DNA of 64,000 bases from Candidatus Omnitrophota bacterium (lineage in GTDB: Bacteria > Omnitrophota > Gorgyraeia > Gygaellales > Profunditerraquicolaceae): assembly GCA_049517335.1 (NCBI GenBank), contig JBEKSD010000002.1, positions 78,523-142,522 of the forward strand, in the 5' to 3' direction. Under the pieces are notes generated by a model. It was not told the origin of the DNA. It ran no database searches and was given only the letters and a program-made list of their open reading frames with translations. Position 1 is the stretch's first letter; each line of letters begins with the position of its first letter. Positions 3,860 to 47,898 of the stretch are shown piece after piece. The position numbers were made by a program, and so were the translations under genes.

Positions 3860-3901
3860 TTTCTTTAAAAAAATCTTTGTGATAAAATTAAGCTTAAAAA
3901 A

Positions 3902-4726
3902 ATGTTCATAATAATCAATAAAGAAGAGCTGGCGCAGGAAATAACCAAGCTTGAAATCCAGGCGCCGCAAGTAGCGGATAAAGCCAAAGCAGGACAATTT
4001 GTAAAAATTATCATCAGTGAAAAGGGCGAGGCAGTGCCTTTAACTTTAGCTGATTGGGATAAAGAAAAAGGCACAATTACTTTAATTTTTCAGAAAGCCG
4101 GTTTTACCACAAAAACATTGGGGTTGCTTAACCGAGAGGACAATATCAACCATATACTCGGGCCACTTGGGCACCCTACTGAAATAAAGAATTTAGGGGA
4201 AGTTTACTGTATAGGCGCAGGTGTGGGTATTGCCGAACTATATCCTGTGGCGCGCGCTTTTAAGAAAGCAGGGAACCGTGTTATCGGGATTATCGGCTCG
4301 CGCAAAAAAGAGCTGGTTATTCTGGAGGACGAACTGCGTAAAGTTACGGACGAATTATTCATTACTACTGATGACGGTTCTTACGGAAAAAAAGGACTTG
4401 TTACCGATATTTTAAGAGAGTTGTTTGAAGTAATTGAAAAATCTACGCATACCAAATATCCGGCGCAAGTCTATGCAATCGGCCCGGTAAGAATGATGCA
4501 AGCAGTTGCGGAGTTTACACGCAATTATCAGGTAAGAACTATTGTCAGCGTAAACCCGATTATGGTTGACGCAACCGGCATGTGCGGCTCATGCCGCTGC
4601 ACTGTCGCAGGCAAAACTGTGTTTGGCTGCGTGGACGGCCCTGATTTTGACGGGCACAAACTGGATTTTGAAGAATTAGTAAAAAGACTGGATTCATTTA
4701 AAACACAAGAAGATAAACTTAAATAA
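3902..4726 (+). CDS. nfnA: NfnA/SudB-like ferredoxin-NADP(+) reductase small subunit (FAD, 2Fe-2S); PyrK-like fold
   Basis: 274 aa; C-terminal cluster motif CGSCRC...C.DGPDFDG; a GltD-like partner lies 2.6 kb downstream. Confidence 0.55.
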   Translation: MFIIINKEELAQEITKLEIQAPQVADKAKAGQFVKIIISEKGEAVPLTLADWDKEKGTITLIFQKAGFTTKTLGLLNREDNINHILGPLGHPTEIKNLGEVYCIGAGVGIAELYPVARAFKKAGNRVIGIIGSRKKELVILEDELRKVTDELFITTDDGSYGKKGLVTDILRELFEVIEKSTHTKYPAQVYAIGPVRMMQAVAEFTRNYQVRTIVSVNPIMVDATGMCGSCRCTVAGKTVFGCVDGPDFDGHKLDFEELVKRLDSFKTQEDKLK

Positions 4727-4732
4727 TTTTTT

Positions 4733-7324: not shown

Positions 7325-8688
7325 TGCCTAAATTGACGTCCAAACAAGGACCCAAAGAACGGATTAAAAATTTTTTCGAAGTTGCGCTGGGTTTCTCTAA
7401 AAAAGAAGCTGAAGAGGAAGCTAAGCGCTGCCTTCAATGTAAAGAGCCACTTTGCGTTAAAGGATGTCCGGTTGAAATTGATATACCGGCATTTATAAAG
7501 TTAATAAAAGAAGGCGAGCCTGAAAAGGCGCTAAAAAAAATAAAAGAAAAGAATGCCCTGCCTGCTGTCTGCGGAAGAGTTTGCCCGCAGGAAAACCAGT
7601 GTGAAGCAGTGTGCGTATTAAATAAAAAGAAAATCGCAATAAATATCGGGGCATTAGAAAGATACGCGGCAGACCATGGAATTAACAGGCCAGTCACCAA
7701 CGAGCCACTCCGCAAAAATATAAAAGTGGCTGTTGTGGGAAGCGGGCCTGCAGGCCTTACCTGTGCAGCTAGCCTTGCAAAAATGGGCTATATAGTGATG
7801 CTCTTTGAATCCTTGCACCTTCCCGGCGGGGTTTTATCTTACGGTATCCCGGAATTCCGCCTGCCTAAGGAAATAGTCCAGAGAGAGGTTGAATACATAA
7901 AAAACTTGGGCGTTGATTTAAAAACGGACATTTTAATCGGAAGTACATACTCCTTAAACGACCTTTTTGCTGCCGGCTACAAGGCAATTTTTTTGGCTGT
8001 GGGCGCAGGTTTACCGCAGTTTTTGGGCATTCCAGGAGAAAACCTTGCCCGAGTTTATTCGGCAAATGAATTCTTAACCCGGACAAACTTAATGAAAGCC
8101 TACAAGTTTCCCGAATACGCCACGCCTATAAACATAGGAAAGAAAGTGGCGGTTATCGGAGGAGGAAATGTGGCTTTGGATTCGGCAAGAACAGCTTTAC
8201 GCCTAGGAAAACAGGTCTTCTTAGTTTACCGCCGGACGGAACTGGAGATGCCCGGCCGACTTGAAGAGATTACAAACGCCAAAGAAGAAGGGGTTATTTT
8301 TAAATTCCTCACCCAGCCAATAAGGATACTCGGGGATGACTCCGGATTTGTCAAAGGCTTGGAGTGCATAAAAATGGAGCTGGGAGAAATGGATTCATCC
8401 AACAGAAGAAAACCCATTCCGGTTAAAGGCTCAAATTTTATTTTAGATGCAGATACGGTTATTGTGGCAATAGGGCAAAACCCTAATCCGCTCTTAGCAA
8501 AAACAACTGAAGGCTTAAAGATTAAAAGTAACGGCACAGTTATAGTTGATGAAAACTATATGACTTCATTAGCAGGAGTATTTGCCGGAGGCGATATAAT
8601 CACTGGCGCAGATACCGTAATTCAGGCAATGGGCGCAGGAAAGAAAGCCGCAATAGCCATAGATAAATATCTAACCCGCGGAGGATAA
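7321..8688 (+). CDS. nfnB: NfnB/GltD-like NADPH-dependent oxidoreductase large subunit (2x4Fe-4S, FAD)
   Basis: 455 aa; N-terminal Cys clusters CLQCKEPLCVKGCP and CGRVCPQENQCEAVC; two dinucleotide-binding GxGxxG regions. Confidence 0.65.
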   Translation: MMPKLTSKQGPKERIKNFFEVALGFSKKEAEEEAKRCLQCKEPLCVKGCPVEIDIPAFIKLIKEGEPEKALKKIKEKNALPAVCGRVCPQENQCEAVCVLNKKKIAINIGALERYAADHGINRPVTNEPLRKNIKVAVVGSGPAGLTCAASLAKMGYIVMLFESLHLPGGVLSYGIPEFRLPKEIVQREVEYIKNLGVDLKTDILIGSTYSLNDLFAAGYKAIFLAVGAGLPQFLGIPGENLARVYSANEFLTRTNLMKAYKFPEYATPINIGKKVAVIGGGNVALDSARTALRLGKQVFLVYRRTELEMPGRLEEITNAKEEGVIFKFLTQPIRILGDDSGFVKGLECIKMELGEMDSSNRRKPIPVKGSNFILDADTVIVAIGQNPNPLLAKTTEGLKIKSNGTVIVDENYMTSLAGVFAGGDIITGADTVIQAMGAGKKAAIAIDKYLTRGG

Positions 8689-19168: not shown

Positions 19169-20734
19169 ATGCTATATCTTGCTTTCATCTTCCACATGCA
19201 CCAGCCATACTATAAGGATCTCCTCACCCAAGAGGCAGAGCTTCCGTGGGTGCGGCTGCACGGGGTCAAGGATTACCTTGATATGGTGCAAATCTTGGGG
19301 CAATTCCCGAAAATTAAACAGAACTTTAACCTTGTCCCGTCACTACTGGAACAAATTGAAGGCTACGCAAACGACACTTTAAAAGATAAATTCCTTCAAT
19401 TATCCTCTAAGCCCACAAATGAGCTCAGTTCTTCCGATCAACAATTCATACTTGATAATTTCTTTTCTATAAATATAGAGAAAGTCATCGCAACGCACCC
19501 GCGGTATTATGCTCTCTATTTTAAGCGCCTTAATAAAGAACAATTTACTGAACAGAACTTTTTAGACCTGCAGGTTTGGTTTAATTTAGCCTGGATTGAC
19601 CCCTCATTTAGAAATGAGATAGCTGAATTAAAGAAACTTATACGCAAGGCCCGTTTTTTTAGCGAAGAAGACAAGCAGGTTGTTTTAAGCAAACAGGCTG
19701 AAATCCTACAAAATATAATCCCTGTGTATAAAAAATTTATGCAGTCAAAACAGGTTGAATTCACGGTAACGCCTTATTACCACCCCATTCTGCCGCTTCT
19801 CTATAATACAAACATAGCAAAGGAAGCTAACAGCAAAACCATCCTGCCAAAAGTTAAATTTTCTTATCCGCAGGACGCAGAAACCCAGATAAATTTAGCG
19901 GTTGATTACTTCAAAGCAAAATTCGGCTCAGCACCAGTTGGTATGTGGCCATCTGAACAGGCGATAAGCGAACACATATTGCCTTACATAATTAAATCCG
20001 GAATAAAATGGATTGTCTTGGATGAAGCGATATTATTTAAGTCCCTAAGAAGAAAAAAGAGGGATACTAACCTGCTTTACCAGCCGCATTTTATAAAGAG
20101 AGAGGAAGGTGAGCTTTCAATAGTATTCCGCGACAGGAATTTATCAGATTTAATCGGATTTGTATACCATAAGTGGACAGCGGAAAACGCAGTTTCAGAT
20201 TTTATCAGGCACCTTGAGGAGATTGCCTCAAGTTTTAAAGACAGGGATATTTTGGTAACTATTGCTATGGACGGGGAAAACGCGTGGGAATATTATTCAA
20301 ATGACGGGCATGATTTCCTTCAGCTGCTTTATCAGAGGCTTTCGGAATCAAAGATGATTCAAACAACAACGGTAAGCGAATATTTGAATCTTAAGCCTAC
20401 TGCATTAAAAATTGACAGGCTTGCCGCCGGCTCATGGATTTTTGGGGAATTCGGAAAATGGATAGGCAATCCGAAAAAGGCGAAAGCGTGGGAATACCTT
20501 GCTAAAGCCAGGCAAGAGCTAGAAGAAATCAGAACAGGAATTAATTCCAGCTCCGCCAATATAAACTTCGAACTTGCATGGAAACAAATGTATATTTTAG
20601 AGGGGAGCGACTGGTTCTGGTGGTTTGGCGAGGATCCCGATGGCAGTTTTGACCGCCTTTTCCGCAGGCATTTAACAAACTTCTATAATATAATAGGTAA
20701 GGAAGCCCCAGAATATACAACTCGCCCCTTATAA
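19169..20734 (+). CDS. Glycoside hydrolase family 57 protein (alpha-glucan branching/amylase-type)
   Basis: 521 aa; N-terminal FHMHQPYY GH57 signature; internal GEF(G)KWIG and WFWWFGED-like motifs. Confidence 0.75.
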   Translation: MLYLAFIFHMHQPYYKDLLTQEAELPWVRLHGVKDYLDMVQILGQFPKIKQNFNLVPSLLEQIEGYANDTLKDKFLQLSSKPTNELSSSDQQFILDNFFSINIEKVIATHPRYYALYFKRLNKEQFTEQNFLDLQVWFNLAWIDPSFRNEIAELKKLIRKARFFSEEDKQVVLSKQAEILQNIIPVYKKFMQSKQVEFTVTPYYHPILPLLYNTNIAKEANSKTILPKVKFSYPQDAETQINLAVDYFKAKFGSAPVGMWPSEQAISEHILPYIIKSGIKWIVLDEAILFKSLRRKKRDTNLLYQPHFIKREEGELSIVFRDRNLSDLIGFVYHKWTAENAVSDFIRHLEEIASSFKDRDILVTIAMDGENAWEYYSNDGHDFLQLLYQRLSESKMIQTTTVSEYLNLKPTALKIDRLAAGSWIFGEFGKWIGNPKKAKAWEYLAKARQELEEIRTGINSSSANINFELAWKQMYILEGSDWFWWFGEDPDGSFDRLFRRHLTNFYNIIGKEAPEYTTRPL

Positions 20735-21358: not shown

Positions 21359-22495
21359 ATGCGTATAATCTGCGTCACCAATCAAAAGGGCGGGTGCGGT
21401 AAAACCACGACAGCGATTAATCTGGCTGCGTCTTTATCCTTAAATGACAGGAAAGTATTGCTAATTGACCTTGACCCGCAGGCGCACGCTACTTTAGGCC
21501 TGAATATAAAAGCAGACTTAAGCATCTATAACGTCTTATCCAAAATTACCAGTAAGAAAGCTCAGCTGGAAGAAATCATTAAAAACGTAAACCCTAATTT
21601 TGACATAGCGCCTTCTGGCATGATTTTGAGCACCTTAGAACAGGAGTTGGCAGGAGAAATCGGAAGGGAATCGTGCCTAAACGATACCATTAACAATTTT
21701 AAGGGCTCTTACGATTACCTGATAATTGATTCGCCCCCCAATCTGGGGATTTTGACGGTTAACGCCATACGCGCCTCAAGCGAGGTAATCATCCCGGTTG
21801 AAGCAAGCCGTTTTTCCCTGGAAGGAGTGTCCCAGCTTTTAAGTATTATTGAATTGATTAAAGACCGCCTGAACCATAAGGTCAGGCAGCGGGTTTTAGT
21901 CGCTAATTTTGATTCGCGCCTAAGGCATTCGTTTGAAATGCTGAATAAGATAAAAGCTGATTTTAAGGATATATTGTTCAGCAATATTGTGCACGTAAAC
22001 GTAAAACTGAAAGAAGCGCAAAATTCGGGGACGCATATTTTCAATTTTGACAAGTATTGCCGGGGCGCCAAAGATTATTTCAGCCTGAGCCGGGAAATTA
22101 TCACCGCGGAAACCGAAGTTCCTGAAAAATTCCCCACGGAGCTTAAGGATATTGTAAAAAGATTCACCGAGAAAAAAATGGCTAAGGTGGAAAAACGCCT
22201 TAACGAGATATTAAAGGAGGAACTGCCTAAGCTTAATGAAGTGGTGTTTTCAGTATCCGCACCGGCCGCAAAAGAGGTATTCCTTGTTGGTGAATTCAAT
22301 AATTGGAAGGCGGATGAATCCGGGAAGATGAATAATGTTGACGGGACCTGGATAAAAAGCCTCATGCTTCATCCGGGGAAATACCGTTACCGCTTTATCA
22401 TTGACGGCTCCTGGACAGAGGATGAAAAGAACCCGCTTAAAGAAAGCAACCCTTTCGGTACGCTTGACTCATTTGTTGAGGTAGAAAAAGCATGA
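21359..22495 (+). CDS. ParA/MinD-family ATPase fused to a C-terminal AMPK-beta/CBM48 glycogen-binding domain
   Basis: 378 aa; deviant Walker A NQKGGCGKTTTAINLA, LIDLDPQA, IIDSPP; C-terminal 90 aa VFLVGEFNNWKADESGKM...GKYRYRFIIDGSWTEDEKNP align with the AMPK beta GBD/CBM48. Confidence 0.75.
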   Translation: MRIICVTNQKGGCGKTTTAINLAASLSLNDRKVLLIDLDPQAHATLGLNIKADLSIYNVLSKITSKKAQLEEIIKNVNPNFDIAPSGMILSTLEQELAGEIGRESCLNDTINNFKGSYDYLIIDSPPNLGILTVNAIRASSEVIIPVEASRFSLEGVSQLLSIIELIKDRLNHKVRQRVLVANFDSRLRHSFEMLNKIKADFKDILFSNIVHVNVKLKEAQNSGTHIFNFDKYCRGAKDYFSLSREIITAETEVPEKFPTELKDIVKRFTEKKMAKVEKRLNEILKEELPKLNEVVFSVSAPAAKEVFLVGEFNNWKADESGKMNNVDGTWIKSLMLHPGKYRYRFIIDGSWTEDEKNPLKESNPFGTLDSFVEVEKA

Positions 22496-37165: not shown

Positions 37166-37660
37166 CTATCTGTAATTTCCAAATGCAAGCGGGATAGGAA
37201 AATCCAACCCCCTTAAGTGCGCGATGACAGCCTGCAGTTCGTCCTTCTTTACCGAACTTACCTTAATCTTTTCTCCTTCAATTTGAGTTTGCACTTTCAG
37301 GCCCAGCCCCTTTATGATAGCTGTCAGCTCTTTTGCCTTCTCCTTATCTATACCCATACAAATCTCAACTACCTGGCGAAGATACCCTTCAAAAGCCTTT
37401 TCAGGGTTATTATATTTTAGAACCTTAAGAGAAACATTCCTTTTAGCCAAACGGGTAAGCAAAATATCGGTAAGGGCACGTAGTTTGAAATCATTATCGG
37501 CAATCAAAGTAATGTTTTTCTCCTTGCGGTCATAAGCAATAGAAGCCTTGCTGTTTTTAAAATCATAGCGCTGCGAGAGCTCCTTATTTGCCTGATTTAC
37601 CGCATTATCCACTTCCTGCAACTCTACCTCAGAAACAATATCAAAAGAAAAATTTGCCAT
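37166..37660 (-). CDS. yajQ: YajQ/UPF0234 family nucleotide (c-di-GMP)-binding protein
   Basis: 164 aa; N-terminal FSFDIVSEVELQEVDNAVNQANKELSQRYDFK is the YajQ signature. Confidence 0.8.
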   Translation of the reverse strand: MANFSFDIVSEVELQEVDNAVNQANKELSQRYDFKNSKASIAYDRKEKNITLIADNDFKLRALTDILLTRLAKRNVSLKVLKYNNPEKAFEGYLRQVVEICMGIDKEKAKELTAIIKGLGLKVQTQIEGEKIKVSSVKKDELQAVIAHLRGLDFPIPLAFGNYR

Positions 37661-37673
37661 ATCCTATCTCCCG

Positions 37674-38582
37674 TTAAAATAATAAAATCCCAATATAAAC
37701 AAGATTAACCCCTATATTAACCAAAATCGTGAGTAAACACATTCTCTCAAGCAGGACACGGTTGTTAAAATTCCCTGAGGCCATTATACAGATAGCTAGA
37801 AGAGAAATAACGCCAACCGGTAAATAAAATAAGCCTCCGGCTAGCGGCAAACCTTTAGTCAAAGAAATCAAAAATATTATAATTCCGCTTATCGCTACTA
37901 AGAGATAAATAAAAGCGGCCTTCTCCTTGCCAAGCCTGACCACTAAATTCCTTTTATTGGCCTGGATATCTGCCTGATAATCAGGGAATTCATTTATTAA
38001 TATCACATTAAAGATCGAACAGGCAATGGGAATTGCGATCCAGTTCAGATGAGAATTTATGCTACCTGCTTGCAGGTAAAACCCCACTACCAGAGGAAGC
38101 CAACCATAGCTATAGGCTATAAATAACTCCCCAATCCCTCTTTTTACCCAGCGCAAAGGTGGTTTTGAATAATAAAAACCGGTAATTATACCGCTTAAGC
38201 CCAGAGGTATGGTCCAAGGGCCTGTTTTAAAATAAAACTGAAGCAGTAACCCAATTGCGCATGCGCTTATTATTATTAAACGACTGGCTAAATCGACTTT
38301 GTCTGAAGAAACCAACCCGTCCACAATGACCTGGCTGCCTCCGTAAAATGGGCTTCTTCCCAGTTTCGCCGAAAACCTGTCTTCATTTATATCATATATC
38401 TCTCCGTTAAAATTTGCCGAGAGCATAATAAGCACGACCGCGCCAAGCCCCCAAAGAAATACCGGAAAGTTGAAAACTTTTACCGTTCGTAAGGCAAGAA
38501 GTGAACCGGCCACAAAAGGCAGTGCACCTGCGAAATGAAACGGCAAACGAGCAAGCAAAATCCATTTAATAATCGTTTTCAT
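37674..38582 (-). CDS. UbiA-family prenyltransferase (MenA-like)
   Basis: 302 aa; about 8 TM helices; Asp-rich region NFNGEIYDINED. Confidence 0.5.
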   Translation of the reverse strand: MKTIIKWILLARLPFHFAGALPFVAGSLLALRTVKVFNFPVFLWGLGAVVLIMLSANFNGEIYDINEDRFSAKLGRSPFYGGSQVIVDGLVSSDKVDLASRLIIISACAIGLLLQFYFKTGPWTIPLGLSGIITGFYYSKPPLRWVKRGIGELFIAYSYGWLPLVVGFYLQAGSINSHLNWIAIPIACSIFNVILINEFPDYQADIQANKRNLVVRLGKEKAAFIYLLVAISGIIIFLISLTKGLPLAGGLFYLPVGVISLLAICIMASGNFNNRVLLERMCLLTILVNIGVNLVYIGILLF

Positions 38583-38973
38583 TTACCTTGGCGCGCAGGG
38601 ATTTCTTTTCCGAGCGCTTGCGTTTTGCTTCCAGAATTTTTAATTTTGCCCTGCGGGAACGCCGGCGCTTCTGCCTGCGGATTTTTTCTCTACGCCTATT
38701 TTCTTCGGAAAGCTTTCCTAAGGTCCGGGATTCAATCTTTTTTAACAATATTCTTCTGGCGAGCAGCCTATTTGCGGATTGAATTCGTTCCTGCTGACAT
38801 TTAACTTCAATGCCGGTGGGGATATGGCGCAGATATACGCAGGTTGAAACTTTATTTACATTCTGCCCTCCGGGCCCCTGCGCACGGATGAATTTCTCAA
38901 CAATATCCTTCTCCCGCACGCCCAGGCGCGCCATCAGTTCACGCGTTTCTTTTTCCTTATCCAAAGCAATCAT
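38566..38973 (-). CDS. arfB: Alternative ribosome-rescue factor ArfB (peptidyl-tRNA hydrolase, RF-like GGQ protein)
   Basis: 135 aa; GPGGQNVNKV motif plus basic C-terminal tail. Confidence 0.8.
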   Translation of the reverse strand: MIALDKEKETRELMARLGVREKDIVEKFIRAQGPGGQNVNKVSTCVYLRHIPTGIEVKCQQERIQSANRLLARRILLKKIESRTLGKLSEENRRREKIRRQKRRRSRRAKLKILEAKRKRSEKKSLRAKVNENDY

Positions 38974-39079
38974 TATTTCATTCCGTATTACCCTGTTTTT
39001 TTACATTTTTAAATATCATCAAAGTTATCAGGTAGGCGAAGAAGCCAAAAAGTAAACCCAATAGAATATACCTCCCTTT

Positions 39080-40054
39080 TTAAGAGCCTTCCTTTAATAA
39101 CGAAGGTTTGATGTTTACTCCAGCAAACCTTTCTTCTCCGTAGGATTCCTGAATCCAGCCGTTATCCAGACCGAAATTATGCATTATATCCTGCGCCTCT
39201 GTATATTCTTTTTCCTTAAGGCGGCGACCGATATCCGAAAACTCTCTTGCTTTATAATACGGCAGGTATTGGCTCATAAGGCTGATGTAGGTCTCAGGAG
39301 AAAGTTCCTCACTTATAAATTTCATAATTGAGTGCGTTCCCGAAACACCATTGGGTAAAACCAAATGCCTTAGAATAACGCCTCTCTGGATTATGCCTTC
39401 CTTGTCAATATCGGCAATGCCTACCTGTCTGTGCATTTCTTTAAGGGATGCCTGATTATATTCAGGGTAACTGGGCGCTGATGAATATTTAATTGCCATT
39501 GAGCTGTCGCCGTAGCGCATATCAACAAGGTAAATATCCACGATCCCTTCAAGCATCTTTATAATCTCCGGCAATTCATAACCAGACGTATTATAAACTA
39601 AAGGTATATTCAGGCCTTGGGGAACGGCAATCAGAAGGCTTTTTAGGATTTGCGGCATCACGTGGGTAGGCGTCACAAGGTTTATATTATGGCATCCTGA
39701 CTTTTGCAGTTGCAACATAAAATCCGCCAATTCTTCAGGTGGCACTTCCCTACCTTGGCCTAATTGACTGAATTCATAGTTCTGACAATATACGCAAGCC
39801 ATATTGCAGTGGGAAAAAAATATCGTCCCTGAACCGTTCTTTCCTGAAACAGCCGGCTCTTCCCCGTGATGGCCCATAAAACTACAGACCTTTGCCTTAA
39901 GACCCGTCTTACAGAACCCTACCTCACCCTTTTTACGGTTAACTTTACATTTACGCGGGCAAATTGAACAGGACTCAAGCATACTAAACGCTTTGTTGGC
40001 AATTCTTTGTAGTTTTCCGCTATTAAATGTTTCTAAATAAGAGGGAGAGCGCAT
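39080..40054 (-). CDS. Radical SAM protein, PFL-activase-like (possibly AmmeMemoRadiSam-type)
   Basis: 324 aa; N-terminal Cys-rich CSICPRKCKV...GFCKTG, then CNMACVYCQN CxxxCxxC. Confidence 0.6.
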   Translation of the reverse strand: MRSPSYLETFNSGKLQRIANKAFSMLESCSICPRKCKVNRKKGEVGFCKTGLKAKVCSFMGHHGEEPAVSGKNGSGTIFFSHCNMACVYCQNYEFSQLGQGREVPPEELADFMLQLQKSGCHNINLVTPTHVMPQILKSLLIAVPQGLNIPLVYNTSGYELPEIIKMLEGIVDIYLVDMRYGDSSMAIKYSSAPSYPEYNQASLKEMHRQVGIADIDKEGIIQRGVILRHLVLPNGVSGTHSIMKFISEELSPETYISLMSQYLPYYKAREFSDIGRRLKEKEYTEAQDIMHNFGLDNGWIQESYGEERFAGVNIKPSLLKEGS

Positions 40055-40578
40055 ATTTTCTTCAGTTGTTGCCCGTATATTTCCCTTATCCTGGTTAATA
40101 TATCTATATATTCTTTGGTCTTATAGTCCTGGTAAGTCCATTCCCCCGGTAGAAAAGTATTATGCTTAAAATACAAAGTTATTTCCGCAAATATCCCTTT
40201 GTCCAGATAAATACGGTGGATATAATCTTTAGTAGTTGCCAAAATATATTTAGCCGAGTCCAGGTATCCCGGGTCAATATTAACCAGGCGTAGCCCAAGC
40301 CTAGAAAATTTACCTTCTACTCTGTTAGTAAATAATTTTATTTTTACGAGTTCTTGTGGGTATATTAGGTTTGAAAAACTTAAGAATTTCTTTTTTAAGT
40401 TGCTGCCGAACTCAAACTCATAGTAATCGGTGAAATTAAAGGGGAGGATACTGCTTTCGTAATCAACGGCACCGAATTTTCTTTTTAAGATTGTTTCGGC
40501 TTTTTTTAATACGGATTCTTCCTTAAAAATCAGGCCCATTACCAGTTTGACGGGATTTGCTTTTCTTACCTTCCCCAT
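40033..40578 (-). CDS. hypothetical protein (DUF4416-like), overlapping the radical SAM gene
   Basis: 181 aa; NIDPGYL and AKYILATTKDYIHRIYL motifs recalled as DUF4416-like. Confidence 0.35.
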   Translation of the reverse strand: MGKVRKANPVKLVMGLIFKEESVLKKAETILKRKFGAVDYESSILPFNFTDYYEFEFGSNLKKKFLSFSNLIYPQELVKIKLFTNRVEGKFSRLGLRLVNIDPGYLDSAKYILATTKDYIHRIYLDKGIFAEITLYFKHNTFLPGEWTYQDYKTKEYIDILTRIREIYGQQLKKICALPLI

Positions 40579-40958
40579 GTCACTGCGGCAGGAGCTTCCT
40601 TAGGCAGGAATTGATTCACATATTGCGAGATCTTCTTACGCTGGTCTTCCCTTATTCTGTTAAAAAATATGGCGACATTAAATCCGCTACCGTCCGGCTC
40701 ATCCTGAACCCTCACAATCACGCCGTTACATTCAATAGCCAGATGTTTTACTCCCTCACTCATGGCCACAGGGAGGCTTAATTTTATAGCTACCCGCGTA
40801 AACGGCGGGATGTACTTATCAATACGGCAATAAGTGCCGAGGCAGCTAATATTCTGGGTTGCGGTCTTGAAATCAAAGCCGTTGGCCGCTACCTTAAGCG
40901 GCAGAGAATGGTCCAGGCGCGGATGCAGCCTTTTCTCTACGCCTATTTTCTTAATCAT
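40566..40958 (-). CDS. PilZ-domain protein
   Basis: 130 aa; RLHPR (RxxxR) and D.S..G (NISCLG) c-di-GMP-binding motifs. Confidence 0.65.
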   Translation of the reverse strand: MIKKIGVEKRLHPRLDHSLPLKVAANGFDFKTATQNISCLGTYCRIDKYIPPFTRVAIKLSLPVAMSEGVKHLAIECNGVIVRVQDEPDGSGFNVAIFFNRIREDQRKKISQYVNQFLPKEAPAAVTWGR

Positions 40959-41158
40959 TGTTTCTTCTCCGCTTTTTGCTTCTCCAAAAAGTCTTTATAG
41001 CATTTCTTGGCGCAATAGAATTTACCGTCGCGGTAATAACGTTTTAGCTTCTTGATAGGTTTATTGCAGGTTATGCAATTTGCCTGTTTCTCTACTTTTG
41101 GTTGTTCTGCTACAATTACCGGAGCCGCTACCTGCGGTGCCTGTGTCTGATCTGCCAT
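40955..41158 (-). CDS. small zinc-ribbon protein
   Basis: 67 aa; CITC...CAKKC; 4-nt overlap with the downstream PilZ gene. Confidence 0.4.
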   Translation of the reverse strand: MADQTQAPQVAAPVIVAEQPKVEKQANCITCNKPIKKLKRYYRDGKFYCAKKCYKDFLEKQKAEKKQ

Positions 41159-41183
41159 TTCTTTTTAAATTTCCTTTCGTTGT

Positions 41184-41522
41184 TTAAGCTTGTTGTGTGC
41201 TCACGTAATCCGCCAAGTATCCCTTATCAGTCAGCCCCAATTCTATGAATTCCAGCCCGATATGATTCCTGTAAGAGTGCGGCAGGGGCTGAGTACGGGT
41301 AACCTTGCCTATCGCCCTTAATGTCCGCGAAAAAATGTTAATTTCCAGCATTAACGGAGTTGCGGGAGGTATGAAACGTTCGCTTACGAACCCTAAACCG
41401 CCTAAGCTGATATTATCACAGATTGTGTTATCAATACGGGACTCGCCCCTTACCTGATAAGTAACGGGGGTACGCAGTTCAACACGGGGAAAACGCCTGT
41501 TATCTTTTGTAATAGCGGCCAT
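41184..41522 (-). CDS. PilZ-domain protein
   Basis: Start set at the internal MAAITKDN preceded by an AAGGAA SD; RRFPR (RxxxR) and DNISLGGLGF (DxSxGG) motifs. Confidence 0.6.
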   Translation of the reverse strand: MAAITKDNRRFPRVELRTPVTYQVRGESRIDNTICDNISLGGLGFVSERFIPPATPLMLEINIFSRTLRAIGKVTRTQPLPHSYRNHIGLEFIELGLTDKGYLADYVSTQQA

Positions 41523-41608
41523 GATTTCCTTAAAAAATATTTTAAGAGAAGCCGTGGCTTTCCTTCCCTGTTGTAAATAGTAACACATAATCCAACTGAT
41601 GTCAATAC

Positions 41609-41637
41609 TTTACAAGGGGGCGTAATTTTGTTATAAT
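41609..41637 (+). promoter_or_regulatory. sigma-70-like promoter for the exeA-like gene
   Basis: TTTACA, 17-nt spacer, perfect TATAAT, GAGGA SD, ATG at 41654. Confidence 0.5.
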
Positions 41638-41653
41638 CATTGATGAGGAAAAT

Positions 41654-42478
41654 ATGTATTCTGAATTTTTTCAATTAAAAGAGCGCCCCTTTAACGTCAC
41701 ATCAGACCCTGCTTTCTTCTATTTTAGCCGCAAACACAAAGAAGCCCTCTCCCATCTTCTTTACGGCGTCTCCCAGAGAAAAGGGATTATCGTTCTAACC
41801 GGAGAAATCGGTACCGGGAAAACTACGCTTTGCCGCTATTTCTTAAACCAACTCGGCTCAAACGTCAAAACAGCCTTTATCCTTAACCCCCATTTTTCAG
41901 AAATGCAATTACTGGAAGCTATAGTCAAGGATTTCGGCATTACGCCGCGCGATAATTCCCGTCTCGGCTTGGTTAAAGATTTAAATAGATTCCTGCTTAA
42001 TGAGTCCGAAGCACAGAATAACGTTGTTTTGATTATTGACGAAGCCCAGAACCTTAAGACCCAGATGCTTGAGCAGGTACGCCTGCTTTCTAACCTTGAG
42101 ACCGATAAGGAGAAATTATTACAGGTATTGTTAGTGGGGCAACCTGAATTAAATAAACGGTTAAATGTTTATGATTTGCGTCAACTCAGACAAAGGATAA
42201 TGGTCAGGTACCATATCGCTCCGCTAGAGGAAGACGAAATAAAAAATTATATTTATCATCGTTTAACCGTTGCGGGCTCGGATGGAAGGATAATCTTTAC
42301 AGATGAAGCCGTTAAGATGATCTGGAATTTCTCCGCCGGTACTCCCCGTTTGATTAATATGCTTTGCGATCGTTCGCTCTTAGCCGCCTTTGTCGTCGAA
42401 ACGCACAAGATTGACGCAGAGATTATAAAAAGAAGCCTTGAAGAACTGGAAAGTTATTTTGTGGGAGAAAAACTTTGA
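41654..42478 (+). CDS. ExeA/GspA (MshM)-type AAA ATPase for secretin assembly
   Basis: 274 aa; Walker A GEIGTGKTT, Walker B VLIIDEAQ, ExeA-like N-terminal FFQLKERPF. Confidence 0.75.
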   Translation: MYSEFFQLKERPFNVTSDPAFFYFSRKHKEALSHLLYGVSQRKGIIVLTGEIGTGKTTLCRYFLNQLGSNVKTAFILNPHFSEMQLLEAIVKDFGITPRDNSRLGLVKDLNRFLLNESEAQNNVVLIIDEAQNLKTQMLEQVRLLSNLETDKEKLLQVLLVGQPELNKRLNVYDLRQLRQRIMVRYHIAPLEEDEIKNYIYHRLTVAGSDGRIIFTDEAVKMIWNFSAGTPRLINMLCDRSLLAAFVVETHKIDAEIIKRSLEELESYFVGEKL

Positions 42479-42963
42479 GTATAATCTATGACGCTCTTAA
42501 GAAAGTTGAACAATCAGGCACTCCTCTTTTAAAAAATAAAAGCGATAAGGAAATAACTGTGCCTAAAAATAAGGTGAAAAGATACCTTATCTATATTTTA
42601 TTTATGGCGCTGGGATTATTTTTCGCGAACATTCTTTTATCTTACCTCGGACCGGCGCTCACCAAAGTTAAAGCCGTAAATGAAACCAAAAGTAACCTCA
42701 CCCAAAACAAACTTCCTATTCAGCCACCCGTACAGCAAACCCTTCCTCCTCCTGCTATTATAGAAAAACCCGCACCTCCTCCTAAGCCAACGCTTGCGTT
42801 AAACGGAATATTTTTCTCAGGAGAGGAAAGTTACGCGCTTATTAATAATCAGATTGTAAAAGTGGGGGATAAAATCAGCGGGGCTGTCATTAAGAAAATT
42901 TCTTCCGATGAAGTGCTGCTTAATTTTGAAGGGTCGGAAATAAAGCTAACTACGGCCCATTAA
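42475..42963 (+). CDS. GspB/ExeB-like protein (TM anchor, Pro-rich linker, C-terminal beta domain)
   Basis: 162 aa; TM helix; PPVQQTLPPPAIIEKPAPPPKP; C-terminus LNGIFFSGEESYALINNQIVKVGDKI; ATGA overlap with the exeA-like gene. Confidence 0.5.
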   Translation: MSIIYDALKKVEQSGTPLLKNKSDKEITVPKNKVKRYLIYILFMALGLFFANILLSYLGPALTKVKAVNETKSNLTQNKLPIQPPVQQTLPPPAIIEKPAPPPKPTLALNGIFFSGEESYALINNQIVKVGDKISGAVIKKISSDEVLLNFEGSEIKLTTAH

Positions 42964-44044
42964 TCCTGTTTCTGAGCGCCTCTTTTATAATAGCAAACGG
43001 AATATTATCAACAACTTTCACCTTTCCTATTCCGGCGCAAAGCACAAACCTGTTTCTTTTCCCGGTGAATTTCTTATCTTTATAATGAGCACTAATAATA
43101 TTTCCCGAGTCTATTTTCTCAATAGTTATCGGCAGACCCGTTTCTTTTATGACCTTTTCAATACGCCCTAAAGTCTTACTATCAGTTAAACCAAGCGCAA
43201 CGCTTATATCGCCTGCCACAAGCATACCTATGGCCACCGCTTCCCCATGATTATAAGAGTTGTACCTGCCGGCTGTCTCAATCGCATGCCCCAAAGTATG
43301 GCCGAAATTTAATATAGTACGAAAACCTCTTTCTTCGCGTTCATCTTTACTTACGATATCGGCTTTGATTTTACTACAACGCTCAACAATAAACTCTAAA
43401 TACGTCTGTCTCTTTTTTAAGACGGATTTATAATTTTTTGCAAGGAAAGAAAACAACTCCTTGTCTTTTATAATCCCGTATTTGATGACCTCTGCCAACC
43501 CGGTTTTCAACTGCCGGGAAGAGAGGGTCTGTAAAAAATTGGTGTCGCTAAAGACAAGCCGCGGCTGATAGAATGCTCCCACAAGGTTTTTGCCTGCTGA
43601 CAGGTCTATAGCGGTCTTGCCTCCGATGGCCGAATCCACCTGAGCCAATAATGTAGTCGGTATTTGAATATAGGGAACCCCGCGTTTATAAATAGAAGCG
43701 ACGAAACCGCCTAAATCTCCTACCACTCCTCCACCGAAAGAAATTATGAAGACTCTTCTGGCTTTATCAAAGCCTGCTAAATCTTTAATTACTGCGGAAG
43801 CAGTTTCTACGGACTTACTTTTCTCGGTATCTGGAATTATCCTGAATCTGGCAGTTATACCCGAAGCCCTTAGTGAAGATTCCAGAGCTTTACCGAATTT
43901 CGTTCTTATAAGCTTATTTGTAATTATAAAAGCATCTGTACCTAATTTTAAAGCTCTGATTTCCCTGCTAAGGCGCTTAAGGATACCGCTTCCTACAATA
44001 ATCTTATAAGAGCGCTTCTTAAGATTTACTTTTATTATTTTCAT
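42950..44044 (-). CDS. aroB: 3-dehydroquinate synthase
   Basis: 364 aa; GGGVVGDLGGF NAD-binding glycine-rich motif and metal-binding His residues. Confidence 0.85.
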   Translation of the reverse strand: MKIIKVNLKKRSYKIIVGSGILKRLSREIRALKLGTDAFIITNKLIRTKFGKALESSLRASGITARFRIIPDTEKSKSVETASAVIKDLAGFDKARRVFIISFGGGVVGDLGGFVASIYKRGVPYIQIPTTLLAQVDSAIGGKTAIDLSAGKNLVGAFYQPRLVFSDTNFLQTLSSRQLKTGLAEVIKYGIIKDKELFSFLAKNYKSVLKKRQTYLEFIVERCSKIKADIVSKDEREERGFRTILNFGHTLGHAIETAGRYNSYNHGEAVAIGMLVAGDISVALGLTDSKTLGRIEKVIKETGLPITIEKIDSGNIISAHYKDKKFTGKRNRFVLCAGIGKVKVVDNIPFAIIKEALRNRINGP

Positions 44045-44052
44045 TGTCGGTT

Positions 44053-44820
44053 TTATTCTACTGCTTCTATAGAAACAATTTCAATAATGGGGTATTTCCC
44101 TTGGTAGCCGCTGAGTTTTCCGGTGACTTTTACTTTATTATAATTAATAGCGTCCAAACTTTTTTTATTACCCTTAAGAAGGTAAGTTTTGTCTAGGGAG
44201 ACGAGCTTATGGGTGGCTTGACGGCCGAATATCCTGCCGTAAGGCTGAATGATCCCTGTTATCGCGACTAAATCCGGTGAGGGCAGATCCAAAACCGGGG
44301 TAGGAATTAATTCCGGTCCCGGTTTTGACTCCGGTTTTTGCGCCGGCTTTACAAACTTCTTATTTACATAACCGAAGCTGTTGCGAATGGGCTCAATTTG
44401 AAACCAACCATTGGCATCCCCTAAAACATTTACAATCTCATCTTTATTAACCTTCCCTAAGATTTGCGAGTTCTCAGAAGGCTTAAGCCTGACATTAATC
44501 CTGTCTTTAGTGGCTTTAGCACTGCTACAGCTGGGTTCAAGCGGAAGACACTCAAATAAAGACTTTTTTACGAAAGAAGGGGCGTTTTTAGGCAGGCGTA
44601 TCCTATACCAGTCATATAATTCAGCACTTACCTCAACTGTATCATGGCTCTTTAATACGCAAATTACTTCGGAGGAGACCGTGGTATCGGCCCTGACATT
44701 AATGTTGTCAGAAGATATTTCCCCGTTAAATTTCCGGAATTCCTGCGCGAATGTAGTTGTGGCTGACAAAACCGCCACTGTCAACAGGACGAATACTATT
44801 CTAGGCAAAAAACAGCGCAT
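44053..44820 (-). CDS. secreted protein with two bacterial SH3 (SH3b) domains
   Basis: 255 aa; signal peptide; two INVR....(D)WYRI / GWFQI SH3b-like units joined by a Pro-rich linker. Confidence 0.6.
   Translation of the reverse strand: MRCFLPRIVFVLLTVAVLSATTTFAQEFRKFNGEISSDNINVRADTTVSSEVICVLKSHDTVEVSAELYDWYRIRLPKNAPSFVKKSLFECLPLEPSCSSAKATKDRINVRLKPSENSQILGKVNKDEIVNVLGDANGWFQIEPIRNSFGYVNKKFVKPAQKPESKPGPELIPTPVLDLPSPDLVAITGIIQPYGRIFGRQATHKLVSLDKTYLLKGNKKSLDAINYNKVKVTGKLSGYQGKYPIIEIVSIEAVE
44291..44326. repeat. Copy P2 of the palindromic element, in-frame inside the SH3 gene (encodes linker SKPGPELIPTPVL)
   Basis: AAAACCGGGGTAGGAATTAATTCCGGTCCCGGTTTT; 36 nt, 12 codons, imperfect palindrome; compare 23593-23628. 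Confidence 0.5.
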
Positions 44821-44827
44821 TTTTTAG

Positions 44828-45133
44828 TTATTTCTTTTCTGCTTTCGGAGCTGCGGTTTTTGCGGGTGCGGGTTTTGCAGCTACTGCGGCGCCTGTCGCA
44901 GTCGCTGCTGCGGGAGCGCCTTCCGCTCCGGCAACAGTTACTTCGGCAGGTTTTTCAATCTTTTCTTTCTTGATCTTAAGCCTCACAGCCTTGATTTTAG
45001 GCAGGCGGTAAACATCATCCCCTTCTTTCCACTGCCCTTTTTCCATCATTGACCTGAGGCGCTCGCTGCGCTTTAGGACGGACCTTTGTTTTTTGTCTTT
45101 TTCGGAAACTGCTAACGACGGATGAATTGACAT
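44828..45133 (-). CDS. small basic protein with Ala/Pro-rich low-complexity C-terminus
   Basis: 101 aa; N-terminus HPSL.VS.KDKKQRSVLKRSERL then KxxK repeats; resembles the small-basic-protein family by recall. Confidence 0.4.
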   Translation of the reverse strand: MSIHPSLAVSEKDKKQRSVLKRSERLRSMMEKGQWKEGDDVYRLPKIKAVRLKIKKEKIEKPAEVTVAGAEGAPAAATATGAAVAAKPAPAKTAAPKAEKK

Positions 45134-45139
45134 TATCCC

Positions 45140-45700
45140 TTATAACCTCCTTAAATGGCAACCCTGGTATTTTTTAGCCAATTGAGCTAATAAAGATTGC
45201 GCGGTTTCTTTGTCAGTAAATTTCCCCACACATAATATCGTATAATTGCCTTTAGATATGATTTGCGGCGAAAAACCCTTCTTTTTCAAAAGCTCGGCTT
45301 CTTTCTGGGCGAAAGCCCTTGTTTTGTAACTTGCAAGCTGGATAGTGTATCCTGCCCCGTATTCAGCCGCCTTTTTTGTATTTTGAGCGGGACTCGTATT
45401 TACGCTTACTATCGGAAGCGGCTCAAACTGTTTAGCCTGTAATGTATTTACGGCAGCCGTAACGGCAGCCTTATCTTCCGTGCTCTCCGTATTTTTTAAA
45501 GGTGCAATACGCTTGCCTTTTTCAACCCCGATAGAAAAACATATTATGCCTGTTACGGCAATCCCTATGATTAAAATAATTTTCTTTTCATAAGCGCGGA
45601 TAAAAGAATAAAAACGCTCCTGTTCATGCAAGCCTTTTACTTGGGGTTTACCGGATTGCGAAAATAAATCAAGCTGCAGGTTCTCTTCTTTTTCCATCAT
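45140..45700 (-). CDS. SPOR-domain membrane protein (septal peptidoglycan binding)
   Basis: 186 aa; TM helix; C-terminal SPOR pattern YTIQLASYKTRAFAQKEAELLKKKGF...ILCVGKF. Confidence 0.6.
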   Translation of the reverse strand: MMEKEENLQLDLFSQSGKPQVKGLHEQERFYSFIRAYEKKIILIIGIAVTGIICFSIGVEKGKRIAPLKNTESTEDKAAVTAAVNTLQAKQFEPLPIVSVNTSPAQNTKKAAEYGAGYTIQLASYKTRAFAQKEAELLKKKGFSPQIISKGNYTILCVGKFTDKETAQSLLAQLAKKYQGCHLRRL

Positions 45701-45716
45701 ACGGGGTATTATATCT

Positions 45717-46784
45717 TTACTTTAATGGTAATTTCAAGTAATTTTTAGTTTTAATTTTTTTTACTACTTTAAGGAACGCCTCGACGACTTTAGGGTCAAA
45801 TTGTTTATTGCTTTTCTTCTTTATCTCCCTCACCGCAGAAGCAATATCCATCCTTTCGCGGTAAGGCCGGCCGTAAACCATAGCCTCAAAAGCGTCGGCA
45901 ACGGACATAATACGCGCACCCAGGGGAATCTGCAATTTCTTCAACCGCGATGGATACCCCGTGCCGTCATATTTTTCATGGTGATGCATGATTATCGGGA
46001 TAACCGGTTTCAATGTCTGGAATGACCGGAGTATATTTGCGCCCTTTTGCGGATGGGTTTTGATTATATTATATTCTTTAGGCGTCAATTTTGTGGTTTT
46101 AGTCAGTATTTCAAGCGGGATTTCCGCTTTGCCCGCATCATGCAGCAAGCTGGCATATTTCAGGCTCTCAATCTGTTTTTCATCCAGATGCATCTGATTG
46201 CCTATTGAGGTTACCAGCCGACTGAAATACGGGGAATGAGTAAATTCTTGTGGTACACGGGTATCCAACAAAGTAACCAGCGATTTTATGCTCCCTAACA
46301 CTGTCTTTTGCTGCTCCTCGTAAAGCTGCAGGTTTTTAATCCCGATTACCGACTGTTCAATGAGGGTATTAAGTATCTGCTGGTCAAATTTTTCAAAATG
46401 CGGCTGGCCTTTTCTGCGCCGTAGGATGATAATTCCTATTATATCTTCGCAGATCATCGGGCTCGCAAGAAGTCCGTCCTTCCTAATTGTGGAAAGATTC
46501 CGCAGAATCTGTTTTTCAATACGGTTTGTAATCCTGCGTTTTTTATCACAGACAACTTTCCTTTTCCTGTCAGCGATGCATCTTATAAGCGAACACTGGT
46601 GGGCCTGATCAAGAATTAGAATTGCGCAGTATTGCGTATTGAATATCTGGCAAATTAGTTTGGTAAGGCGGGAGACCAATTCTTTAAGCTCATAAGTAGA
46701 ATTAATCAGCCGGTATATACTGTGTATACCTGAAGCTAAAGTGTTATACTTTTTCGTAGGGGTAAAATAGTTTTTTATATTCAT
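45717..46784 (-). CDS. GAF plus HD-GYP domain c-di-GMP phosphodiesterase
   Basis: 355 aa; HD motif (LLHDAGK) and HHHEKYDGTGYP. Confidence 0.8.
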   Translation of the reverse strand: MNIKNYFTPTKKYNTLASGIHSIYRLINSTYELKELVSRLTKLICQIFNTQYCAILILDQAHQCSLIRCIADRKRKVVCDKKRRITNRIEKQILRNLSTIRKDGLLASPMICEDIIGIIILRRRKGQPHFEKFDQQILNTLIEQSVIGIKNLQLYEEQQKTVLGSIKSLVTLLDTRVPQEFTHSPYFSRLVTSIGNQMHLDEKQIESLKYASLLHDAGKAEIPLEILTKTTKLTPKEYNIIKTHPQKGANILRSFQTLKPVIPIIMHHHEKYDGTGYPSRLKKLQIPLGARIMSVADAFEAMVYGRPYRERMDIASAVREIKKKSNKQFDPKVVEAFLKVVKKIKTKNYLKLPLK

Positions 46785-47898
46785 CTAACGCGTACCTATC
46801 GGTCATGCCCGCGATATAATCGCAAACTACTCTCTTCACGCCGTCTTTTGGTATTTTCTTCTGTATTTGCGCCGGTAACTGCTCCGGTTTCTTAAGATAG
46901 TCCTTAAATAACTCGGTTATAAAACGTTTTGCTTTATTACTCATCCTTACCACCCGGTAATGGTGATAAAGATCCGCCATAAGGAACTTCCGTAAAGGCT
47001 TCCTTAAGTCCAGCATCTCTTTACTAAAAACAACTACTTTAATGCCGCATTTTTTTGCTTTGAATGCGGAATCCAACTTAAGCCTCTTTAGGTTATTTTC
47101 CGTCTGCGATATGAGATCGGTAACCTGAATATCAATAAGAGACCTGATAATCTGGTATTTACGCAATTCGACATTTATTTTAGCATATTTAGAACCTATT
47201 TGTCTATTTATATTCTCCCAGATAGCCAGTCTTTCAAGTTCACCTTCCCTGATAAGTCCGGAAGTCAGGCCGTCATCTATATCGTGGTTATCGTAGGCGA
47301 CCTCATCGGCAATATCAACTACCTGCGTTTCAAGTGTGGGCATCTCTTTAGCGGAAAATTCCCTGATTTTTCCGGCTTTATCAAAAAGGGAAGAATGCCT
47401 TACGATACCTTCCCTTACCTCCCAGCTTAAATTCAGGCCGGGAAAACCGGGGTATCTTTCTTCAAGATAATCCACCACTCTTAAACCATGGACATTATGA
47501 TTAAAACCGCCACAGTCTTTCATTAATTCATTCAGCACCTCTTCCCCTGAATGGCCGAAAGGAGTATGGCCCAAGTCATGCGCAAGGGCAATGGCTTCGG
47601 TTAAGTCCGTGTTTAACCTCAGTGCCGAAGCTATAGTGCGGGCGATTTGAGCTACTTCTATCGTATGGGTCAGCCTTGTCCGGTAATAGTCCCCTTCATG
47701 GTTTACGAATACCTGCGTCTTATATTCAAGCCTCCTGAAAGCGGCAGAATGTATTATCCGGTCGCGGTCCCTCTGATAAACAGAGCGATAAGCATGTTCC
47801 TTTTCGGGATACTTCCTCCCTTTTGAGTTACAGCTCTTCATGGCGTAAGGCGCCAGAAAAACATCCTCGTATTCTCTAATTTGTCTTTGATTCAGCAT
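46744..47898 (-). CDS. dgt: dGTP triphosphohydrolase-like HD phosphohydrolase
   Basis: 384 aa; RLTHTIEVAQIAR HD motif; dGTPase-like length. Confidence 0.8.
   Translation of the reverse strand: MLNQRQIREYEDVFLAPYAMKSCNSKGRKYPEKEHAYRSVYQRDRDRIIHSAAFRRLEYKTQVFVNHEGDYYRTRLTHTIEVAQIARTIASALRLNTDLTEAIALAHDLGHTPFGHSGEEVLNELMKDCGGFNHNVHGLRVVDYLEERYPGFPGLNLSWEVREGIVRHSSLFDKAGKIREFSAKEMPTLETQVVDIADEVAYDNHDIDDGLTSGLIREGELERLAIWENINRQIGSKYAKINVELRKYQIIRSLIDIQVTDLISQTENNLKRLKLDSAFKAKKCGIKVVVFSKEMLDLRKPLRKFLMADLYHHYRVVRMSNKAKRFITELFKDYLKKPEQLPAQIQKKIPKDGVKRVVCDYIAGMTDRYALDEYKKLFYPYEKV

Follow-up and report, generated by a model that had tools for sequence, protein, structure and literature searches.

GspA and GspB (ExeA and ExeB) are encoded as an AAA+ ATPase gene followed by the gene of a coupled single-pass membrane protein with a periplasmic HR fold (PMC9239104; PMC4098917), and binding to the N0 domain of secretins is common to the HR domains of GspB, GspC and PilP (PMC9239104). 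In the archetype of Alteromonas and Pseudoalteromonas, a short GspA without the periplasmic peptidoglycan-binding region is joined to a long GspB (PMC9239104), and the Vibrio MSHA system includes MshM, an ATPase-only ExeA-like protein (PMC4624765). The known entry points of cyclic di-GMP (c-di-GMP) into pili and type II secretion systems (T2SS) are MshEN domains and the PilZ-FimX-PilB circuit at the motor ATPase (PMC5013675, PMC8389850). Here we analyzed a 64-kb stretch of DNA (approximately 41% GC; hereafter the window) from a metagenome-assembled genome (MAG) of Candidatus Omnitrophota, in which a short GspA/MshM-type ATPase and a GspB-like partner (together, the pair) lie divergently from genes for two PilZ proteins and a 67-amino-acid (aa) zinc-finger protein. 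PilZ genes beside this apparent secretin-helper pair recur phylum-wide, a hint, though no proof, that pilus or secretion machinery receives signals by a new route.

The window proteins are on record at NCBI as MGA27747xx, on a 149-kb contig. We called domains on the open reading frames (ORFs) of the window with Pfam and NCBIfam, and compared the region with 80 loci (L001–L080) fetched around homologs of the ATPase, whose closest relatives are found in Omnitrophota MAGs at no more than 80% identity. All of the genes named by a sequence-only reading of this region were recovered at the positions it had given (ORFs, Pfam, NCBIfam). The observation is thus confirmed, and its interpretation, c-di-GMP control of a secretin, pilus or T2SS assembly step through PilZ adaptors, is partly supported: conserved PilZ adjacency, canonical PilZ motifs and the secretin and prepilin context of homologs agree with it, whereas the linkage of the YajQ and HD-GYP genes and the lack of a secretin in the window and its 10-kb flanks do not. 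The central features are as follows.

40566–40958, minus strand: PilZ_A, single-domain PilZ protein, 130 aa (PF07238, 38.4 bits)
40955–41158, minus strand: 67-aa zinc-finger protein with four cysteines (C-x2-C-x17-C-x3-C)
41184–41522, minus strand (ORF to 41588): PilZ_B, single-domain PilZ protein, 112 aa from ATG 41522 (PF07238, 44.1 bits)
41577–41605, minus strand: divergent promoter-like site TTGACA-17-TACTAT, serving the PilZ_B gene string
41609–41637, plus strand: promoter-like site TTTACA-17-(TG)TATAAT, upstream of the ATPase gene
41654–42478, plus strand: AAA_22 ATPase, 274 aa, short GspA/MshM type (AAA_22, E = 1.1e-29)
42475–42963, plus strand: T2SSB/T2SSC-like (GspB-like) bitopic partner, 162 aa (HR-fold model)

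The ATPase is a cytoplasmic protein consisting of an AAA+ domain only. Its Walker A (GEIGTGKT) and Walker B (VLIIDEAQ) motifs are intact, and the protein ends after the domain, with no transmembrane (TM) segment and no match to the peptidoglycan-binding family PF01471. The earlier label "ExeA/GspA-like" therefore holds for the ATPase domain but not for the TM and peptidoglycan-binding region, which the 274-aa protein lacks. The best curated family was TIGR03015 (XrtA/PEP-CTERM system-associated ATPase), with 313.6 bits and E = 1e-93 against a cutoff of 324.5; similarity to these ATPases extends over the full length and includes the P-loop and DEAQ motifs, whereas the score falls under the cutoff, the gene lacks an exosortase context, and its partner is of HR type. 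A PDB sequence search with the ATPase returned nothing informative. Public names for this protein differ, being "general secretion pathway protein A" at JGI and TsaE (the tRNA t6A ATPase subunit) at NCBI. The TsaE identity was rejected, with TIGR00150 scoring 24.9 bits against a cutoff of 60.1; this name is not credible and is probably a public mis-annotation, judging from the family scores.

The ATPase gene overlaps that of its partner by 4 nt (TTGA, with a TTG start), i.e. the two are translationally coupled, and in the window this two-gene unit is isolated, with the PilZ genes on one side and aroB on the other. The TTG start was validated by the MSIIY N-terminus, which is invariant in 61 homologs. 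Modelling of the partner from a 61-sequence alignment revealed a short, invariant N-terminal helix (MSIIYDALKK), a TM helix (residues 31–58), a disordered proline-rich linker and a periplasmic HR domain (residues 109–159), the C-terminal beta-domain being predicted with pLDDT above 90 and adopting the HR fold of GspC, GspB and PilP in the model. The sequence-only reading had called this protein GspB-like. Its single TM segment and modelled periplasmic HR domain agree with that label, but the Pfam T2SSB match (PF16537) remained at 26.5 bits, under the cutoff of 28.4, and a PDB sequence search returned nothing informative. In 48 of 53 Omnitrophota-type loci, the next gene after that of the ATPase encodes a partner with the MSIIxxALKK motif.

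Outside Omnitrophota, homologs of the ATPase are found at secretins. In nine loci of other phyla (L062, L065, L066, L069, L070, L073, L075, L076 and L078), a homolog with 49–54% identity directly follows a secretin gene and precedes the gene of an MshN-like TPR protein, which is the position of MshM. The full order in L062, as resolved by Pfam, is PilM/N-like, two small proteins, secretin, ATPase, TPR protein and MshEN-T2SSE ATPase, i.e. the mshI-J-K-L-M-N-E order of the Vibrio MSHA operon; the secretin call for the other eight loci was made by phmmer, and some of these are short contigs with part of the operon. In two Omnitrophota loci (L034 and L050), the genes of the ATPase and the HR partner are followed by four ORFs, of which three are of N-methyl prepilin type, with a single GspH-like one per locus, and one matches no family; an MshEN-T2SSE ATPase gene comes next. 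A rough neighbor-joining (NJ) tree placed the approximately 270-aa Omnitrophota/PVC ATPase clade beside the MSHA-type proteins, with the L079/L080 type outside. Given these homolog contexts (the MSHA-like operons, the NJ tree and L034/L050), a short ATPase of the GspA/MshM type joined to a GspB-like protein is the best description of the pair, and we regard a secretin-accessory role for it as likely.

The pair shares with GspA-GspB the order of an AAA+ ATPase gene followed by that of a coupled single-pass membrane protein with a periplasmic HR fold, and with the short GspA archetype the missing peptidoglycan-binding region. It differs in that the ATPase has neither a TM segment nor PF01471, the partner scores under the T2SSB cutoff and has no OutB C-terminal extension, the pair is not beside a T2SS or secretin gene and belongs to another phylum, and its PilZ and zinc-finger neighbors are undescribed for GspAB. 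The ATPase resembles MshM as an ATPase-only ExeA-like protein, and MshN-like partners share the N-terminus MS(I/L)IxxALKKA with the window partner, whereas the latter has an HR domain instead of TPR repeats and the pair is detached from a pilus operon. This N-terminal peptide (window 42475–42513) is common to the HR partner and the MshN-like TPR partners (L062, L053–L055), is shared loosely by the downstream partner of L079/L080 (MGKISMALERAEKE), and might act as a shared docking peptide across the family of these ATPases.

We then examined the PilZ genes of all 80 loci, counted by an iterative HMM search over all ORFs. Fifty Omnitrophota-type loci extend far enough upstream to be scored; in 40 of these, the ATPase gene has a PilZ gene as its immediate divergent neighbor, and in 46 there is one within 4 kb; none was found beside the ATPase homolog in 24 loci of other phyla. 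All 134 PilZ ORFs are upstream of the ATPase gene (one, in L068, is an artefactual merged ORF across the ATPase start), and the 10 kb on its downstream side contain no PilZ gene in any of the 80 loci. Where the upstream flank is complete, as many as five PilZ paralogs are stacked there, and tblastn matches to PilZ_A were obtained in 43 related loci. In the window, PilZ_A and PilZ_B are the only PilZ genes of the 64 kb, PilZ_B corresponding in position to the proximal divergent PilZ gene of the 40 loci. One subclade of Omnitrophota (L006, 9071–9406; L009; L014) has, between two PilZ genes upstream of the ATPase, a conserved protein of approximately 111 aa with a hydrophobic N-terminus and no Pfam match.

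Both window proteins exceed the PF07238 gathering threshold (GA) of 22.5 bits as single-domain PilZ proteins, consistent with the earlier description. PilZ_A carries RLHPR and NISCLG, and PilZ_B carries RRFPR and NISLGG, so that both show the canonical RxxxR and (D/N)xSxxG motifs; the degenerate motifs that would have spoken against c-di-GMP control are therefore not found here. Judging by these motifs, the two proteins would be canonical single-domain c-di-GMP receptors. Both motifs are also canonical in 89 of 93 non-proximal PilZ paralogs. Nearly all of the aligned proximal orthologs show a recognizable RxxxR-type motif; the second motif is canonical in 19 of 41, and most of the others have a serine-to-glycine variant such as NIGAGG. 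A large proximal PilZ subclade with NIGAGG-type second motifs and retained RxxxR includes L006, L007, L009, L011, L014, L015, L026, L029, L032 and others.

The gene between the two PilZ genes encodes a 67-aa protein, called a zinc ribbon in the sequence-only reading, with four cysteines (C28-x2-C31-x17-C49-x3-C53), and a basic C-terminal helix follows the cysteine motif. The four cysteines and an RYYRDG core are invariant in 52 homologs. We obtained 101 homologs without a Pfam domain, every named one of which is from Omnitrophota. Comparison with treble-clef families revealed weak LIM/MYM-like similarity; no significant sequence or fold match to a named family was observed, and the PDB search was uninformative. 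The 4-nt overlaps attributed to this trio are present at the junction of the zinc finger and PilZ_A, whereas PilZ_B and the zinc finger are separated by a 25-nt gap. The trio is not self-contained, since PilZ_A and the DUF4416 gene overlap by 13 nt and the minus-strand gene string runs on. Contigs found from distant zinc-finger homologs repeated the window layout: HD-GYP, SPOR, small basic protein, SH3 and aroB come first, the pair follows with its strand reversed, and beyond it lie PilZ, zinc finger, PilZ, DUF4416 and radical SAM.

The predicted promoter before the ATPase gene was found at 41609–41637 on the plus strand, with an additional TG and a match to 11 of 12 consensus positions. The TTTACA-17-TGnTATAAT site is positionally kept in L001–L004, L019, L038 and others. 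The minus-strand site at 41577–41605 has its -35 element 4 nt from the plus-strand -35 element, and its TGTCAA element is kept in close relatives. Since TTGACA-17-TACTAT lies inside the longer ORF (to 41588), PilZ_B most likely starts at ATG 41522, which is preceded by an AGGA ribosome-binding site. A near-palindrome, AGCCGTGGCT, at 41550–41559 between the minus-strand site and the PilZ_B start, is conserved in the window, L001, L019, L038, L020 and L028, with a variant in L002, and could be an operator or a 5'-leader element. The leaders of the ATPase gene vary: in L001, L003, L015, L019, L024, L025 and L035 the -10 element ends 6–7 nt before the ATG, which suggests leaderless ATPase mRNAs in these relatives, and the window gene has a 16-nt spacer from the -10 element and a GAGGA ribosome-binding site.

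These features are consistent with a circuit in which c-di-GMP would reach a secretin through the pair. The invariant N-terminal cytoplasmic helix of the partner probably docks onto the ATPase, giving an inner-membrane complex, and the HR domain probably binds the N0 domain or ring of a secretin encoded elsewhere in the genome, which would be part of a type IV filament machine (type IVa pilus, T2SS or Tad). PilZ_B, the zinc finger and PilZ_A would be transcribed divergently from the back-to-back promoters and co-regulated with the pair; c-di-GMP-loaded PilZ proteins would engage the ATPase, or the N-terminus of its partner, in the manner of small adaptors, with the zinc finger possibly helping or bridging the contact. 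Secretin assembly or engagement would thereby follow the cellular c-di-GMP level, which the HD-GYP enzyme encoded 3 kb away, outside the unit, may help to set. As a whole, a secretin-accessory pair with PilZ/zinc-finger c-di-GMP adaptors in a conserved Omnitrophota neighborhood is our best explanation of the locus, with a probability just short of even. For a direct connection of the PilZ proteins to the pair, we would go to the same level or a shade lower. The most specific form, in which stand-alone PilZ proteins and their small zinc-finger partner are c-di-GMP-dependent adaptors of a GspA/MshM-type ATPase and act at the secretin via the HR partner, is tentative and rather unlikely.

Such a circuit would resemble PilZ-FimX-PilB of Xanthomonas and Pseudomonas (PMC8389850, PMC5595344), where a small single-domain PilZ adaptor acts on a pilus-machine ATPase in a c-di-GMP circuit, but its target is the hexameric extension motor PilB, whereas the suspected target here is a GspA-type AAA+ ATPase and the PilZ motifs are canonical. 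The Vibrio MSHA system is under c-di-GMP control, with entry via the MshEN domain of MshE and not via PilZ proteins. In the PilZ-FimX-PilB circuit, FimX senses c-di-GMP, and that PilZ is not known to bind it. An independent, circumstantial hint of a c-di-GMP link comes from the short archetype of Alteromonas and Pseudoalteromonas, where DUF3391 forms part of GspB (PMC9239104); elsewhere this domain is nearly always found in fusion with HD-GYP (10.1101/2021.11.05.467447). A reading of DUF3391 as PilZ-like was discarded, as the HD-GYP census shows an HD-GYP-associated N-terminal domain instead. In V. cholerae, a mutant in the c-di-GMP phosphodiesterase cdgJ has a motility defect that is suppressed by transposon insertions in mshM and mshN (PMC4624765).

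Several results weigh against c-di-GMP control through the PilZ proteins and the pair. No secretin, T2SS or type IV pilus gene was found by Pfam in the large ORFs of the 64-kb window or in its 10-kb flanks, which hold only housekeeping and TonB-receptor genes; however, type IVa pilus genes are reported from nearly all Omnitrophota (PMC10066038), and on that phylum-wide basis the genome probably does have a secretin system, whose absence would have contradicted the earlier interpretation. The HR fold of the partner is a predicted model and not a solved structure. Approximately half of the proximal PilZ orthologs carry NIGAGG, a serine-to-glycine change, in place of (D/N)xSxxG. Our literature and record search returned no PilZ-ATPase fusion or interaction; the literature search also found no described link of PilZ with GspA, GspB, MshM or AAA_22, and neither PilZ nor c-di-GMP comes up in the papers on Omnitrophota genomes. 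The role of short GspA/MshM-type ATPases is uncertain in itself: deletion of mshM or mshN in V. cholerae left MSHA pili undiminished (PMC4624765), and a P. aeruginosa ExeA-like mutant had fewer pili and less twitching, with, it appears, no reported difference in PilQ (PMC6321873).

The genes on either side of the central features, to which the competing explanations refer, are listed below.

37166–37660, minus strand: YajQ/DUF520 protein (DUF520, E = 8.7e-60, 201.9 bits; NF003819, 193 bits, cutoff 146)
37674–38582, minus strand: UbiA
38566–38973, minus strand: RF-1-domain protein
39080–40054, minus strand: radical SAM protein
40033–40578, minus strand: DUF4416 protein (PF14385, E = 4.6e-59)
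42950–44044, minus strand: AroB
44053–44820, minus strand: SH3_3 protein
44828–45133, minus strand: small basic protein (TIGR04137)
45140–45700, minus strand: SPOR protein
45717–46784, minus strand: HD-GYP protein (HD_5, E = 1.9e-42, 145.3 bits)
46744–47898, minus strand: dGTPase

The strongest competitor is that the PilZ genes and the pair are neighbors by descent only, the pair serving a secretin while the PilZ proteins and the zinc finger act elsewhere (PilZ_A with DUF4416, or both as general receptors) within a block of approximately 12–15 kb inherited vertically. We consider this a real possibility, though clearly below an even chance. The whole block from HD-GYP to radical SAM is syntenic, which may reflect descent and not function, and plainly unrelated genes are kept by the pair as often as PilZ, including aroB (37 of 43 loci), the small basic protein (h101; 40 loci) and the SPOR gene (32 loci); because aroB is as conserved as PilZ, synteny alone does not show PilZ function. 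PilZ_A is tied more closely to DUF4416 than to the ATPase, with a DUF4416 gene no more than 100 nt from a PilZ gene in 25 of 27 loci and the 13-nt overlap in the window, and DUF4416 and PilZ may form a functional couple of their own; a PDB sequence search found no solved relative of DUF4416. Ten Omnitrophota-type loci have the pair without a proximal PilZ gene, and in the other phyla the homologous pair has no PilZ companion. Descent alone fits less well, however, with the proximal PilZ gene staying where DUF4416, radical SAM and the zinc finger are lost or lie 3–5 kb away (L005, L036 and L006-type loci), with the accumulation of PilZ paralogs solely on one side of the pair, or with the conserved back-to-back promoter architecture. 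Moreover, L046 (CP070655.1, a complete genome) has no proximal PilZ gene; in this location it encodes different c-di-GMP components, with an MshEN-T2SSE ATPase, a HAMP-GAF-GGDEF cyclase, a response regulator and a stand-alone MshEN protein on the same side within 7 kb (3070–7463). This arrangement may be a swap of the c-di-GMP receptor type.

The family score of the ATPase would also allow an exosortase (XrtA)/PEP-CTERM exopolysaccharide export ATPase, in which case PilZ would tie c-di-GMP to polysaccharide export. TIGR03015 is indeed the top curated match over the full length, and L079/L080 (49% identity) show a gene order resembling polysaccharide export (chain-length determinant/tyrosine-kinase-like), as judged from N-terminal sequences only. 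The match nevertheless stays under the family cutoff, the partner is modelled as the secretin-binding HR fold instead of a kinase or Wzz fold, the NJ tree leaves L079/L080 outside the clade that lies beside the MSHA type, L034/L050 link the pair to prepilins and a T2SSE ATPase, and no exosortase or PEP-CTERM genes were seen in Pfam scans of the window; we regard this export role as improbable. Less probable still, and by a small step, is the proposal of the sequence-only reading that the whole 9.6-kb span (YajQ, both PilZ proteins, HD-GYP and the ATPase pair) forms one co-functional c-di-GMP island. All four c-di-GMP-related families do fall within 9.6 kb, and HD-GYP lies within approximately 10 kb of the ATPase in 24 related loci and recurs on the zinc-finger-seeded contigs. 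Eight unrelated genes are nevertheless interspersed (UbiA, RF-1 domain, radical SAM, DUF4416, AroB, SH3, small basic protein and SPOR), HD-GYP stands at a variable distance (+4 to +10 kb) in a different gene string, a regular-expression scan of the 64-kb window found neither the GGDEF motif of diguanylate cyclases nor an EAL motif, and the island is largely refuted for YajQ by its synteny counts.

The YajQ-family protein itself is present, with NF003819 at 193 bits against the cutoff of 146, and c-di-GMP binding is known only for some members of this family. A YajQ gene lies within 10 kb of the ATPase in 1 of 33 Omnitrophota loci, and four unrelated genes separate it from the PilZ genes in the window. 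YajQ is a bystander outside the conserved neighborhood and does not belong to the proposed cluster. The HD-GYP protein shows the HD motif LHDAGK and HHHEKYDGTGYP (HHExxDGxGYP motif) in its translation. The earlier assignment as a GAF-HD-GYP phosphodiesterase stood for the HD-GYP domain, whereas GAF remained under threshold (17.9 bits against a GA of 22.4); an ortholog (L086) has a GAF_3 hit on record. Its linkage to the PilZ genes and the pair is loose, the gene being approximately 3 kb away beyond the aroB, SH3, small basic protein and SPOR genes in a separate transcription unit, and 24 of the 80 related loci have an HD-GYP gene in their flanks, at +4–5 kb in the nearest relatives and +8–10 kb in others; both this and the YajQ linkage count against a shared c-di-GMP function of the wider region.

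Downstream, the pair converges on aroB, which is followed by the SH3 gene, the small basic protein and the SPOR-domain membrane protein (42950–45700). The gammaproteobacterial linkage pilMNOPQ/hofQ-aroK-aroB-damX (SPOR) recalls this pair-aroB-SPOR order.

What is new is a GspA/MshM-type module paired with PilZ, a case made from comparative genomics and one predicted fold. If the proposed control by the PilZ proteins is true, c-di-GMP would act at secretin assembly or engagement, not at the extension motor, and short GspA/MshM ATPases would gain a defined regulatory role. These ATPases are widespread beside the secretins of pili and secretion systems, and the phylum-wide PilZ pairing offers a testable idea of their regulation. 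For the Omnitrophota, a phylum of uncultured nanobacteria, type IV pili are a proposed means of host attachment (PMC10066038), and a switch of this kind at the pore of the pilus would be relevant to their lifestyle.

The rest of the window is almost all housekeeping by Pfam (recO, panE/panB, PPDK, sigma-70, thiC/thiE, accBC, efp, aroQ and others). Across the full 64 kb, Rfam detected two tRNAs and no c-di-GMP riboswitch. At 21359–22495, a ParA/MinD-like ATPase (AAA_31, CbiA) carries a C-terminal glycogen-binding module (AMPK1_CBM/CBM48), an unusual fusion, and a GH57 glycoside hydrolase gene (19169–20734) adjoins it.

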